A DNA stretch of 32,000 nucleotides, taken from Candidatus Baldrarchaeum yapensis (GTDB lineage: Archaea; Asgardarchaeota; Baldrarchaeia; Baldrarchaeales; Baldrarchaeaceae). The notes under the pieces were generated by a model. It was not told where the DNA came from and did no database searches. It saw nothing but the letters and a program-made list of their open reading frames with translations. The DNA is taken from positions 56,924 through 88,923 of the forward strand of contig JAEOSH010000004.1 in assembly GCA_016840465.1 (NCBI GenBank), given 5' to 3'. This document shows, in pieces, positions 11,394 to 24,849 of this stretch. Both the position numbers and the translations under genes were made by a program. Every line of letters begins with the position of its first letter. Position 1 is the first letter of the stretch.

Positions 11394-11424
11394 TAGACAT
11401 CAGTGTCTAAGACACTGATGTCTA
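11394..11424. promoter_or_regulatory. 31-bp palindrome (15-bp perfect arms) between the TATA box and the ATPase start codon
   Basis: TAGACATCAGTGTCT-A-AGACACTGATGTCTA, preceded by TTAAAT (11388-11393). The last A is the A of ATG 11424. Confidence 0.7.
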
Positions 11425-11783
11425 TGAGGTACGATTACTTGGACACAATACTTTACCCGCAGGGAGAGCGGAACATATTCACGGATCGAGAGGATGTGCT
11501 TAAAAAGTTGGAAGTTTCCCTTGAAAGGGTGAAGGCAGGAGAATTTCGAGGTTTTCTTTTCATAGGCATAAGAAGATGCGGAAAAACGCTTATACTTAAG
11601 GAATTTTTGAAAAGAATAATAGGAGATCCTTCTATTAACGTATTCTACGTGGATTGTGAGAGCATTCCGCGTCAGCCTGATATCTTTACCGACCGACTCA
11701 TGAGTTGGTTCGTATACTGGTGCATCGAACGGGGGCGTGGCACACCTGAGCGCTATATGAACTTGGAGAATCTTCCGTTCTGA
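11424..11783 (+). pseudogene. N-terminal part (Walker A) of an archaeal AAA-wHTH-PD-(D/E)xK ATPase interrupted by an insertion
   Basis: IFTDREDVL and Walker A GIRRCGKT. Ends at TGA 11781-11783 before Walker B. Confidence 0.82.
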
Positions 11784-11957
11784 CTCTCCGCCACTTTTGT
11801 TGCATTCGATGCGTGTGTAGCGGAGAGTCTTCCCGTCTCGGGGTCCATCGACGGGCCTTCGCGGGGAACGGTACTCCGCACATCCATCTGGCCACTCGCT
11901 CCGCCCTTTCGGGCTTCCCCTCCCTCTTACCACCCATCCCACATCCCGGGCGGAGCC
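11775..11957 (-). ncRNA. Putative structured non-coding RNA of unknown family (about 180 nt)
   Basis: 113/180 G+C (63%) over 11781-11960. It has four or more stems, a GCCC-GAAA-GGGC GNRA hairpin and a G-U pair that work only on the minus strand, and a BRE/TATA 29 nt upstream of the first stem. Confidence 0.55.
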
Positions 11958-11979
11958 ATTTGACATAACAAAACCTTCC

Positions 11980-11994
11980 TTTATAAGGGTTTTG
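11980..11994 (-). promoter_or_regulatory. Archaeal promoter CAAAACCC-TTATAAA driving the putative ncRNA
   Basis: TTATAAA at 11986-11980 on the minus strand, with an A-rich BRE-like element. Expected TSS is about 11957. Confidence 0.5.
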
Positions 11995-12022
11995 AGGTTG
12001 CAAAAGTGCATGAAAGCAACGA

Positions 12023-13357
12023 ATGCAACACTATACGTTTCTGCCCCACATCATCGAGACCTTAGAGGCAGTTCCAGAGGGGTTGAAGCAGGCCGTGAGG
12101 GAGTATTTGGAAGCGCGAGGCATCGATATAAAGTTGAGAATAGCACTCTCCACGCCGCTTAGATTGAAACGCCCGGCGGTCATGATATTTGACGAGTTCC
12201 AAGATGCAATCGAGACCTTCTCACTCATGAAAATAGACATACTCGGAATTATGCGGGAGATCATGCGAGGGCGGGTTCTATTAGTACTCTCCGGGTCCAT
12301 TCGCAGCATAATGGAGAGGGTGGTCAAAACAGGAGAGGGCAGATACTTCCTCCAAATGGAGAGAATCGAGTTGGAGAGTTTCGATACGAAGAGCACGTGG
12401 GAAATGATTGAGAAAATCTGGGGGATGCCGGTATCGGGAAAAACGGTAAGAGAAATCATGAGGTTAACTGGGGGCTTTCCCTTCTATATCCACACGGTTC
12501 TCGAAAGGGCGCTCGAGAACTCAAAAATTTTCGGTGGACGACCCGAAGATTACATAGAACTATCCTTTTTCCAAGAGGCGTGTTCGAGCGGCGGGAAAAT
12601 CTACGAACATTGTCGCTACCTCTGGACAGATTACGTGAGGTATGCTAAACGAAGGGCCCTGCTGAGATCGATTTTGGAGAAAATTGCAATACATGGAGAA
12701 CTGACGCTCACAGATCTCGCCAAGATGTTGGGAAGAGACGCCTCCTACGTTCAAAAGTACTTGGACGAGTTGCTGAACCTTGGGCTGATAAAGAAAAGAG
12801 GAAGAAGATTTTCCATCTTCAACAGAGTTTTTTCCTTCTGGATACTTGCACGTAGAGAGATTCCTGAAGTGTCTAGGATCCCCTTCGGGGAGAAAGCGCT
12901 ACTAGAAAGACTGAGAGAGTTGGAAAGACGCACATCTAAGGTGGAAAGATCAATTGCCATAGGATTTGAAGCGTGGGTTCAGCGCGTATTGGAAAATGTT
13001 GCGGGAAAAACAATAGGAGCTCGTGAAGTCGGGATCACAAAGTTGGAGAAGGTGACACTCCCCAGTAACGTGAGAAAGAATCCCATTAAACGGATCGGGG
13101 ATGAAGTTTTTGAAGCCGATCTAGAGTTCTCAAACGGTATGAAATGTATAGTTGAAGTGACCGTCAAACGGGTTGATGCCGAGTACCTCAAGGAAATTGA
13201 AGAGATATGGCAGGCGGATATTCACTGGGTAGTGTCCAGAGAAGGTTTCACCACGTCCGCAGTTAAGTACGCTATGGAGAAAGAAAACTTCATACTCAGC
13301 GATTTGGAGGCAATAAACATGCTTTCGAGAAAGGTTGGCGTGAAACCATGGAGGTAG
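12023..13357 (+). pseudogene. C-terminal part (Walker B, wHTH, restriction-endonuclease-like domain) of the interrupted ATPase
   Basis: Walker B VMIFDEFQD, LVLSGS and LTGGFPFY; wHTH LTDLAKMLGRDASYVQKYLDELLNLGLI; FEADL..IVEVT..WVVSREGFT (DUF234-like tail). Confidence 0.82.
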
Positions 13358-13378: not shown

Positions 13379-14701
13379 CTACCCGCATCTTATAGACTTC
13401 ACACATCTTTTAAAGTCCACTGATGTTACACATTCTTTAATCTTCCTAGAGATGCAACCCATTAGGAGCCCCGATTTGATGCCTAACCCTGCTAGCTTCC
13501 GCATATACTCATGCGGGTCCTCACCACGGTAAGTTGCCAGAATAAGTTCGGTTGCAACCACGTCTGCACACACCCGTCTCACAAGCCTCTTACCTCTATC
13601 CGAAAGCCTGAAATCCTCCTCTATGTACCTGTAAACGGAATCGACGATGTCATCGAACCTCTTAGCTGCCTCTAATATGGTAACCTCCAGGAGAACCTTA
13701 GAAAGTTCCTTATGCACTCTCTCCTCGGATGGAACTCCCCTCGCTACCTCTAGATCATGTCTCATAATGCTCCACGCCTTTAACTTATACATGTTTTTGT
13801 CAAAATGCAGAACTGCACCCTCGGTCACGTTACCAAGCCTCTTATTCACCTCCTCAAATGTGCCCATCAATTTCATCAGAAACTCTCTCAAATTGTCCTC
13901 TGACGGGAAGGGCACCCCATGAAGGCCCGTCTCCTCGATTACCTCCGAAACCTCCCCCCTCTCGACTCGAATGATACCATATCTCTTAACTAGAGGGAGC
14001 CCATAATCCGCCGCTATATCCTCTCGTTCTTCGGGCGATACGTGCTCGTAATTGTCCCATTCGTCGATGTCCCCTTTTCTACGTAAAAGGTGTGTCAACT
14101 CGAAGTGTATCCCGGGCTTGAGTTTTTCCACCTTCTCCGTCCTTCTCTTATCCGTAATACCCGTCAAAACCCCGTACTGTTCCTGAACAGCGGATCCCCA
14201 CACCTCAAATACCGGAATGTAACCCGCTTCTACCACCGCCATTACCTTTGACCGCAAATACCTCGGCATACGTTTCATAACGTCCATAATCCTGCCCTTC
14301 GAAACAACTGCTGTCCTCGTCTTCGGAACAACGATAAATCCCCCGTCCTTTCCGTAGATGGGATAAAAGAGGCAGTTAAACCCATCCCTCTTAACATCAA
14401 GATAAATGAGCCCTGAAAACTCGAGTAGGTTGGATGCCAGCTGCATACTTGGTATCTCAAAACAATACTCGAGCTTTGGCATGTTAGGCGTTATCTGGAA
14501 CCGAACCCTCTCGTTCTCGTGTATCACGACCTTCCCTAACCATCTATCGTGTCGCATCCAGATACTCGCCGTCACCTCACCATACCTGTCCACATTTAAC
14601 TTGAGAGTTCTCCAAACATTCTTCTTGCTCCAATCCGGCAACTTCATCAATCTCGGATCTGCCCAATTATTAGTTTTTCGCGAAATTGCAATCTCCTCCA
14701 A
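13379..14701 (-). CDS. ATP-dependent RNA ligase (covalent nucleotidyltransferase superfamily, Rnl-type)
   Basis: Motif I VKRDGFN (KxDG), Ia KTR, III FEVWG, IV EGAVL, V YKLK. No OB-fold pattern of DNA ligases is evident after motif V. The true start may be ATG 14647. Confidence 0.75.
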   Translation of the reverse strand: MEEIAISRKTNNWADPRLMKLPDWSKKNVWRTLKLNVDRYGEVTASIWMRHDRWLGKVVIHENERVRFQITPNMPKLEYCFEIPSMQLASNLLEFSGLIYLDVKRDGFNCLFYPIYGKDGGFIVVPKTRTAVVSKGRIMDVMKRMPRYLRSKVMAVVEAGYIPVFEVWGSAVQEQYGVLTGITDKRRTEKVEKLKPGIHFELTHLLRRKGDIDEWDNYEHVSPEEREDIAADYGLPLVKRYGIIRVERGEVSEVIEETGLHGVPFPSEDNLREFLMKLMGTFEEVNKRLGNVTEGAVLHFDKNMYKLKAWSIMRHDLEVARGVPSEERVHKELSKVLLEVTILEAAKRFDDIVDSVYRYIEEDFRLSDRGKRLVRRVCADVVATELILATYRGEDPHEYMRKLAGLGIKSGLLMGCISRKIKECVTSVDFKRCVKSIRCG

Positions 14702-21759: not shown

Positions 21760-22548
21760 ATGAGCGTGTACGTGGCCGGAATAGATGTTGGTGCGGCCAC
21801 TGCAAAGTGCGTTATAATGGACGATGGAGAAATTGTCGGGTATGAGATAATTCCCGTGTCGTACGATCTCTCCGAGAGCGCAAAAAGGGTATTCAATGCC
21901 ACCCTCAAAAAATTAGGCATCTCGGCGGATGAAATAAAATCGGTAGTGTCGACCGGATATGGTAGATACAACGTTCCCTTTGCCAAAAAGCAGGTCACCG
22001 AGATAAGTTGCCACGGGAGGGGCGCGATCTTCCTGATTCCCTCGACTAGGACGATAATAGACATCGGGGGACAGGATACGAAGGTGATAGCAATAAACGA
22101 GCGGGGGAGGGTTCTGGACTTCGTTATGAATGATAAGTGCGCCGCGGGAACCGGAAGATTCCTTGAGGTGATGGCGAGGGTTCTCGATGTCAAGGTCGAA
22201 GAGATGGGAGAAATCGCGCTAAGAGCCAAAAAGAAAGTGAAGATTTCAAGCACATGCACGGTCTTCGCGGAGTCAGAAGTGATAAATCATCTGGTGCATA
22301 AAGTTCCAAGGGAGGATATAATTGCAGGTTTGGTGGACGCAATATCCTCACGGGTGGCCGCACTCGCCCAGAGGGTCACAATCAGGCCCGATGTCATACT
22401 AACGGGAGGGGTTGCAAAAAACGAGGCTGTTCGCAGAAGCTTATCAGAAAAGCTTGGCTTGGAAATCCTCAGGCCGAAGGAACCCCAAATAGTTGGTGCG
22501 ATAGGCGCCGCCCTTTTCGCACGTGATATTCTCCAAGGGAAAAGATAA
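21760..22548 (+). CDS. 2-hydroxyacyl-CoA dehydratase activator (BadF/BadG/BcrA/BcrD, HgdC-like [4Fe-4S] ATPase)
   Basis: GIDVG, TGYGR, EISCHG, IDIGGQDTK, NDKCAAGTGRFLE, STCTVFAESEV and TGGVAKN motifs. Confidence 0.92.
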   Translation: MSVYVAGIDVGAATAKCVIMDDGEIVGYEIIPVSYDLSESAKRVFNATLKKLGISADEIKSVVSTGYGRYNVPFAKKQVTEISCHGRGAIFLIPSTRTIIDIGGQDTKVIAINERGRVLDFVMNDKCAAGTGRFLEVMARVLDVKVEEMGEIALRAKKKVKISSTCTVFAESEVINHLVHKVPREDIIAGLVDAISSRVAALAQRVTIRPDVILTGGVAKNEAVRRSLSEKLGLEILRPKEPQIVGAIGAALFARDILQGKR

Positions 22549-24169: not shown

Positions 24170-24294
24170 AGGGTATTTTTCGACTTTCTCGTATATTTAG
24201 TTTTTGAGGAAGTGTCTGCTATGACGCATGAGGACGATGCCAAGGACAGGTAAGATTAAGATTGAAGGAATGTGTAATGTTTCGGGGGGATCGA

Positions 24295-24849
24295 ATGAGT
24301 GATGATCTCGTGAGGAGAATACGGGAGGCGCTTGAAAAGCGAGTGGAATATTCTTGTAGTTTCAAGAATGCGTCTGTACTTGTTCCGCTCAGCATAAACT
24401 CGAAGCGAGAACTGCACGTGACGTTCATAAAGAGGTCTTCCAAACTCTCCCTTCACGGGGGAGATGTTGCGTTCCCGGGTGGACTCAGAGAGGGGAATGA
24501 GGATCCCATCGAGACAGCACTGAGGGAGGCGTGGGAGGAGTTGGGTATCCGTAGGGAGGATGTCAGGGTCCTTGGGTTTCTGACCCCCACCGTCACCCGA
24601 ATAACAATGATACACATAGTGCCCGTTGTCGGCCTTATACCCATGCCTTACCCCTTCAGGCCGAATGAGAACGAGGTCACGGAGGTCATCCAGATTTCGA
24701 TCTCGGATCTTTATAGGAACCAGTTCGAGAACTGGTATGGAAAGTATTACAAGTGCGGGGACCACATTATCTGGGGAGCATCGGCAAGGATCCTGACAAA
24801 CCTCCTCGAAAGATTAAAACCTATAATCATGCCCCGCGCATCCCCATAA
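24295..24849 (+). CDS. Nudix hydrolase, CoA pyrophosphatase subfamily (NudL/PCD1-like)
   Basis: LHGGDVAFPGG, the Nudix box ETALREAWEELGI and IWGASARIL. Confidence 0.9.
   Translation: MSDDLVRRIREALEKRVEYSCSFKNASVLVPLSINSKRELHVTFIKRSSKLSLHGGDVAFPGGLREGNEDPIETALREAWEELGIRREDVRVLGFLTPTVTRITMIHIVPVVGLIPMPYPFRPNENEVTEVIQISISDLYRNQFENWYGKYYKCGDHIIWGASARILTNLLERLKPIIMPRASP

Follow-up and report, generated by a model that had tools for sequence, protein, structure and literature searches.

A gene-less IS607 derivative with a probable TnpB omega-RNA scaffold lies antisense in an ATPase gene of Candidatus Baldrarchaeum yapensis

The omega-RNAs (reRNAs) of TnpB follow an architecture in which the scaffold ends at the boundary of the transposon and the flank serves as the guide (10.1101/2023.11.20.567912). 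Three consecutive stem-loops, the first of which (the "nexus") pairs with the 3' end of the scaffold, have been described as universal for the omega-RNAs of TnpB, those of IS607 included (10.1101/2023.11.20.567912). It was found for the Clostridium botulinum element that the IS607 transposase TnpA needs a strict GG core and prefers TGGG, which is also the TAM (10.1101/2023.11.20.567912), and the TAMs AGGAG and GAGGG have been reported for other IS607 TnpBs (PMC11061315). Stand-alone omega-RNAs that have been mobilised function in trans with compatible effectors (PMC10691335), and minimal, PATE-like IS605 elements encode omega-RNAs (10.1101/2023.03.14.532601). SMN1, a 320-bp MITE of Sulfolobus islandicus, is mobilised in trans by the transposase of ISC1733 (PMC3718332).

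We examine here a locus of Candidatus Baldrarchaeum yapensis in a window of 32,000 nucleotides (the whole stretch of DNA that was analysed, from contig JAEOSH010000004.1), whose positions are counted from its first letter. In our judgement, positions 11775-12047 are very probably a gene-less, non-autonomous (MITE/PATE-like) derivative of an archaeal IS607 element, antisense in an ATPase gene, that keeps the scaffold of the TnpB omega-RNA (Table 1). The insert belongs to a repeat family, its ends are common with those of an element that carries TnpA (a serine transposase) and TnpB, its RNA region is homologous to the 3' ends of tnpB, and the structure of this region is supported by covariation. 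In particular, its 3' 119 nt are homologous to right ends linked to tnpB, and full-length elements share the ends of the MITE. Judged on sequence, the defining features that we tested, both for a non-autonomous IS607 element and for a TnpB omega-RNA scaffold, appear to be present; transcription, binding by TnpB and cleavage are predictions.

Table 1. Features of the insert and of the interrupted gene, in window positions
Feature	Position	Strand	Basis and remarks
Whole MITE-like IS607 derivative with junction G's	11775..12047	-	omega sense GGGG-CAGAAACG...CAGAAC-GG; repeat copies, ends common with the full IS
GGGG at the left-end junction	12044..12047	-	GG core dinucleotide 12045-12044 and two upstream G's, TAM-like; probably derived from the target
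Left end (LE)	11997..12043	-	47-nt matches to LE-only sites, that of the C96 IS among them (85-96% identity); aligned with the LEs of full-length relatives
BRE/TATA-like box CAAAACCC-TTATAAA	11980..11994	-	kept in copies; putative promoter
Predicted transcript start (about 11957) and MITE-specific 5' hairpin	11898..11957	-	MFE fold, comparison with the IS right end
5' hairpin arms	GCUCCGCCC 11956-11948 / GGGCGGAGC 11906-11898	-	3' arm from the zinc-finger coding region of tnpB
Omega-RNA scaffold, 119 nt	11775..11893	-	covariance model R1, 125.6 bits, E 1.4e-37; covariation; 87% identity to the tnpB-linked copy
P1/nexus UGCGG/CCGCG	11880-11876 with 11864-11860	-	covariation
P2 CCCGUC/GACGGG	11855-11850 with 11837-11832	-	covariation
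P3, 13-bp stem with one U-G	11829-11817 with 11794-11782	-	covariation
Likely pseudoknot, P1-loop CCGUUC with 3'-terminal GAACGG	11871-11866 with 11780-11775	-	pairing kept, near-invariant
Predicted guide segment AAGAUUCUCCAAGUUCAUAU	11755..11774	-	host ATPase sequence just past the right end; predicted from omega-RNA architecture
ATPase Walker A part, N-terminal	11403..11774	+	Pfam AAA_14/ATPase_2; colinear with full-length homologues of 537-538 aa
ATPase Walker B and winged-helix part, C-terminal	12044..13357	+	Pfam ATPase_2 and HTH families; homologues P0002-P0004, 42-43% identity

A search of the genome's own assembly (2.27 Mb, 100 contigs) gave 22 DNA matches to the element. About 15 of these are near full length (252-279 bp, 73-99% identity), and their boundaries all correspond to window positions 11775 and 12047; the feature that an earlier note on this DNA had ended at 11994 extends in reality to the second of these positions. 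The repeat unit measures 269-273 bp. Read on the minus strand, the element runs GGGG-CAGAAACGTATAGTGTTGCATT ... GGAGAGTCAGAAC-GG, and in all copies the flanks diverge directly after CAGAACGG. Its GC content is 62.9% over 11775-11960, 58.2% over 11775-11994 and 55.7% over the whole insert, against 43.5% (11403-11774) and 49% (12048-12500) in the flanks, which means that the GC-rich gap of 63% described earlier exists for the structured part and not for the insert as a whole. One MITE copy, on contig C55, is 98-99% identical to that of the window and lies at a different site, which suggests recent movement of the MITE. At G000:C76:22491-24413, a solo LE (22491-22537) and a MITE with a truncated LE (about 24207-24413) bracket ~1.7 kb of unrelated DNA, including an ORF of 233 aa on the opposite strand, an arrangement that could be a composite or a nested rearrangement. 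The copies G000:C39:1-296 and G000:C69:3170-3439, one of them at a contig end, have the same left flank and differ in their right flanks, which is probably an assembly branch at the repeat; C57 and C80 are among several contigs with further MITE copies at their ends.

At G000:C96:26169-28026, two genes lie between the same LE (about 47 nt) and the same final 115 nt. The first encodes an IS607-family serine transposase TnpA (NCBIfam NF033518, E 8e-71; Pfam Resolvase and HTH). The second encodes an RNA-guided TnpB (NF040570, E 2.6e-47; Cas12f1-like TNB domain) that resembles solved TnpB/Cas12f structures and in which the RuvC D/E/D motifs and the zinc ribbon can be read by eye. The scaffold of the window, which ends at 11775, is 87% identical to the block linked to this tnpB. 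The MITE is made up of the LE to about the start of tnpA, a short MITE-specific segment, a fragment coding for the zinc finger and the last 119 nt. By tblastn, the short copies keep a remnant of TnpB residues about 341-402 (the ~60 last codons of tnpB) and no intact gene. Since the window element shares both ends with the C96 IS and keeps this remnant, it is taken as an internal-deletion derivative.

The tnpB frame itself (G000:C96:26822-28132, which is L014:411-1721) and those of the relatives L038-L079 are often stopless inside the element and run through the scaffold into host DNA. In 21 elements, the tnpB stop codon was found from -152 to +148 nt from the element end, and about half of the frames run out into host DNA. 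This variable position means that the tail of the protein is not what is conserved and, with the stop outside the element, that the C-terminal tail of TnpB depends on the insertion site. Two more tnpA-tnpB pairs of the IS607 type are present at G000:C96:32153-33800 and G000:C55:21079-22687, with TnpBs about 27% identical to that of C96; no match of covariance model R1 was found beside either pair, and their guide RNAs presumably belong to other families.

The gene that the insert splits in two parts encodes an archaeal-type ATPase on the plus strand. The ORF with Walker A covers 11403-11783 and is ended by a TGA, and the ORF of the second part (Walker B and winged helix) covers 12023-13357. 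Pfam ATPase_2 covers the first part with its model positions 1-56 and the second with 109-224, and the alignment with full-length homologues (537-538 aa, 42-43% identity) is colinear across the junction of the insert. Deletion of 269 nt (CAG...AACGG, 11775-12043) restores the ATPase frame as ...ENL-P-HIIETL, in which the P matches the conserved P of the homologues. Insert sizes of 271 and 273 nt were considered and rejected, as deletion of either breaks the frame that deletion of 269 nt restores. The DNA inserted in the ATPase gene is most likely these 269 nt, the deletion of which leaves GGGG beside the guide-matching flank; in omega sense, the target would be GATGTGG-GG-AAGATT, that is, GGGG with a GG crossover.

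The junctions of the other elements are of the same kind. Among 23 junctions, CAG is preceded by GGGG or (A/T)GGG in 20, and a G stands at -1, -2, -3 and -4 before CAG in 22, 23, 20 and 18 of them, respectively. GG lies ahead of CAG at the left end in 22 of the 23 and terminates all the listed copies and relatives, and the elements show no terminal inverted repeats and no target duplication beyond the GG at their junctions. GGGG precedes CAG also at two new MITE sites on metagenome contigs (L087, L088), the flanks of which have no counterpart in the own genome. We infer the GGGG target and TAM at the ATPase site from one frame restoration and these junction statistics, because an exact-pattern scan of metagenomes found no uninterrupted ATPase site. 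No intact orthologue of the ATPase was found in the four other genomes of the same order. When the flanks of the remaining MITE copies were joined, no other interrupted gene emerged convincingly (at C92, C69 and C82, the spanning frames are short or doubtful); these copies are mostly intergenic and do not lie inside the ATPase gene family. On this reading, a mobile element simply landed in the ATPase gene, and the antisense placement is an accident of insertion. Downstream, an ORF of 440 aa on the minus strand (window 13379-14701) is convergent with the ATPase gene and showed no link to the MITE.

In its final 119 nt, the element carries the conserved 3' end of tnpB, and this stretch stops exactly where the element does (...CAGAACGG). 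Among species-representative genomes, 47 loci with relatives of the C96 TnpB were found, in MAGs with the labels Bathyarchaeia, Thermoproteota, Archaeoglobi, Thermococci, Methanodesulfokora, Baldrarchaeota, Jordarchaeum, Asgardarchaeum and others. For at least 20 of the 47 loci, an nhmmer profile found the same block where tnpB has its 3' end, with an invariant CAGAACGG end after which the flanks diverge. The alignment A2 brings together 29 blocks, from 20 loci with TnpB relatives and from the copies of the own genome, and its RNAalifold consensus has 23 pairs, of which 16 show compensatory double changes. Pairs were counted on the named four-helix structure, and the controls were 500 column shuffles and partners slid by 1-3 columns. 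The cells paired amount to 96.0% in the named structure, against 83.0% with shuffled columns and at most 51% with slid partners, and the covariation score is 0.377, against 0.135 and at most 0.078, respectively. None of the 500 shuffles reaches the observed values of pairing and covariation, and a structured RNA region such as the earlier note had proposed is in this way borne out by the 29 homologues.

The stems which that note had named all lie where it had placed them, and the minus-strand MFE fold reproduces CCGUUC/GAACGG, CCCGUC/GACGGG, the 13-bp stem and GCUCCGCCC/GGGCGGAGC. Their arrangement is in part a different one. Instead of a small CC-GCGAA-GG hairpin, covariation supports P1, and CCGUUC/GAACGG, earlier taken to close a multi-way junction, more likely forms a pseudoknot, as its CCGUUC lies in the loop of P1. 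This pairing holds in 97.7% of the cells, with near-invariant columns (no covariation) and a C-A mismatch in 4 of the 29 sequences (one MITE subfamily has such a mismatch); a pseudoknot between the nexus loop and the 3' end of the scaffold is likely. In the 5' domain, the GCCC-GAAA-GGGC loop and the GCUCCGCCC/GGGCGGAGC stem have GGGC in common, so either can be drawn and both cannot form together. On the tnpB strand, the stem pairs include 56 G-U against 27 A-C, an excess that favours the sense strand of tnpB, and one terminal U-G is present in 25 of the 29 sequences. A-C mismatches occur in the stems of several MITE copies, as expected of decaying elements. The MFE fold of the single minus-strand sequence is weakly, and not significantly, better than shuffles (z -1.9), and the plus strand folds as well (z -2.7); folding reproduces the stems, and the real support comes from covariation in the homologues. 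From homology and covariation, we regard the structured block as the omega-RNA (reRNA) scaffold of an IS607-family TnpB.

Upstream of the scaffold, our analysis agrees with the earlier description as to the minus strand, the BRE/TATA-like box at 11994-11980 and an approximate, predicted 5' end near 11957. The box CAAAACCC-TTATAAA is retained in 13 of 15 own-genome copies and is also present in a 73%-identical MITE of G003, a genome from a different family of the same order. A BRE-like purine run upstream of TATA is found on the minus strand only. With the usual spacing between box and start in Archaea, transcription would begin near 11957, at the base of the 5' stem. The position of the box matches that of the TTTTATAAAG box which, in the LEs of full-length elements, lies just upstream of the ATG of tnpA, and the box may have been inherited from the IS left end, possibly as a mere relic. 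We rejected the idea of a promoter acquired specifically by the MITE, since the full-length elements have the TTTTATAAAG box at the corresponding place. As for the 5' stem, its sequence is changed and its pairing kept in the G003 MITE (CUCGCUC/GAGCGAG), and in copy C76b it is kept with a loop 29 nt shorter. The loop segment GGGAUGUGGGA (11925-11945), invariant in 7 diverged MITE copies, near-duplicates the region of the 5' strand of P1, GGAUGUGCGGA (11875-11890), both read on the minus strand, and might permit an alternative pairing.

It is conceivable, if on the unlikely side, that the same MITE is an inert relic, in which the TATA-like box is debris of the left end, no RNA is made or used, and the structure is still seen since the copies, being young, descend from a functional parent. 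The box does sit where the LE of full-length elements has one, and the own-genome copies are so much alike (86-99%) that conservation among them tells little, but the 73%-identical MITE of G003, from another family of the order, keeps the TATA box, the 5' stem and the three scaffold stems through compensatory changes. The A-C mismatches that build up in the MITE stems would suit an element without function, whereas stand-alone omega-RNAs are known to work in trans elsewhere (PMC10691335).

We consider it very improbable that the inverted repeats act as DNA only, with the serine transposase of IS607 binding them or using them for synapsis at the right end. The two strands fold to about the same degree, and the invariant CCGTTC/GAACGG pair with the terminal CAGAACGG could be a sequence recognised by a protein; however, the sequence of P1-P3 varies freely with the pairing kept, G-U included, which is expected of an RNA and not of a sequence-specific DNA site, and the architecture agrees with that of published omega-RNAs. 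Moreover, IS607 TnpA acts on double-stranded DNA with ends that carry no palindromes (10.1101/2023.11.20.567912), so covariation of hairpins is not expected of DNA recognition. A new self-standing class of ncRNA unrelated to transposons (a ribozyme or an antisense regulator of the ATPase) has next to no likelihood, since the lack of a matching Rfam family and the antisense position within a gene weigh little against a multi-copy element with transposon ends, an RNA part homologous to the 3' ends of tnpB in dozens of genomes, and other copies that lie outside the ATPase gene family. The RNA, which the earlier note had been unable to match to tRNA, 5S, SRP, RNase P or C/D-box patterns, belongs to no Rfam family, RAGATH-18 included: the window has no match at gathering thresholds, and the lone match at permissive thresholds is a miRNA at chance level (E 0.14, with 21 bits where the gathering score is 80). 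Among the identities that had been offered, the RNA-bearing non-autonomous element and the guide-type RNA describe a MITE with an omega-RNA scaffold well, and the undescribed ncRNA class and the ribozyme give way to a TnpB omega-RNA scaffold in an IS607 deletion derivative.

Taking the MITE with its omega-RNA scaffold as the preferred reading, we can propose how it would function within its host. The element has kept the LE up to about the start of tnpA with the TATA-like box, the 5' hairpin, the 119-nt scaffold and the right-end boundary, and IS607 TnpA would move it in trans through the GG core dinucleotide (ISC1733, cited above, is likewise of the IS607 family). Transcription driven by the TATA box would begin at about 11957 on the minus strand and continue past the scaffold into the flank, which would serve as a guide to the ATPase site without the insert. 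The one cognate TnpB (that of G000:C96) would load the RNA of the MITE and cut the empty site flanked by GGGG, which would favour retention of the insert by homologous repair; the occupied site, where the right end reads AACGG and not GGGG, would be spared from cleavage. A search for trans targets of the guides gave nothing beyond 12-nt seed matches, about as many as chance would produce; one adjoins GGGG. This match, at G000:C82:2919 on the plus strand, is exact over the initial 12 nt of the guide predicted for a C76 MITE and is preceded by GGGGG; the MITE in question is on the minus strand, with its right end at reverse-complement position 11921, which is C76:31882. The match may be a chance one (about 0.05 expected) or a trans target.

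A more speculative view, which we hold to be a long shot, is that the ~15 promoter-bearing copies of the MITE form a dispersed library of guides for the single cognate TnpB, and that the 5' hairpin, with its near-duplicate GAUGUGGGA of the 5' strand of the nexus, is a folding switch or a processing signal absent from the full-length element. If this were true, every copy would have its own TATA box to drive its transcription, and one nuclease would police many insertion sites.

With covariance model R1, 21 sites were found in the own genome, a single one of them beside the cognate tnpB; of the 151 genomes sampled from the phylum, 20 have sites, in some cases 10-22 of them. What had the appearance of an orphan RNA is settled as the guide-RNA scaffold of a transposon nuclease. 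It belongs to a thermophile-wide family of archaeal IS607/TnpB omega-RNAs with good covariation, found in MAGs labelled Bathyarchaeia, Thermoproteota, Archaeoglobi, Thermococci and Asgard lineages, and one genome of the Asgard phylum has about 15 gene-less carriers of the guide RNA for each cognate nuclease gene. The compact thermophilic TnpB, its scaffold and a TAM of the GGGG type are candidates for a potential editing tool. This is a known kind of selfish element and not a new class of RNA, and the current understanding of OMEGA systems is unchanged by it.

Among described systems, the CboIStron of Clostridium botulinum (10.1101/2023.11.20.567912) has the same right-end omega-RNA on the tnpB strand, with three stem-loops and a nexus loop able to pair with the 3' end of the scaffold, and the same GG at both junctions without target duplication, beside a G-rich target and TAM (TGGG there, probably GGGG here). 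Unlike it, the element described here is of an archaeal lineage, has no sequence similarity to the bacterial RNAs and no intron, and has a scaffold wholly in a tnpB frame that is often stopless in the element; the window copy, in addition, is without both genes. The stand-alone omega-RNA loci and PATE-like elements of IS200/IS605 (PMC10691335; 10.1101/2023.03.14.532601) are also gene-less, mobilised and multi-copy, and combine transposon ends with an omega-RNA whose compatible effector is elsewhere in the genome. Those examples, however, are mostly of IS605 type, with a Y1 transposase, hairpin ends in single-stranded DNA and a TTGAT-like TAM, whereas the window element is of IS607 type, with a serine recombinase, a GG core and an archaeal TATA-like box. 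The likeness to SMN1 (PMC3718332), which is by description and not by sequence, is that of an archaeal non-autonomous element of similar size with its transposase in trans. Finally, the reRNAs derived from RAGATH-18 in bacterial IS607 TnpBs (PMC11061315) are likewise guide RNAs with stem-loops and pseudoknots and a G-rich TAM (AGGAG/GAGGG), but they lie downstream of, and separate from, the coding sequence and belong to an Rfam family, whereas the RNA of the window overlaps tnpB and has no Rfam match.
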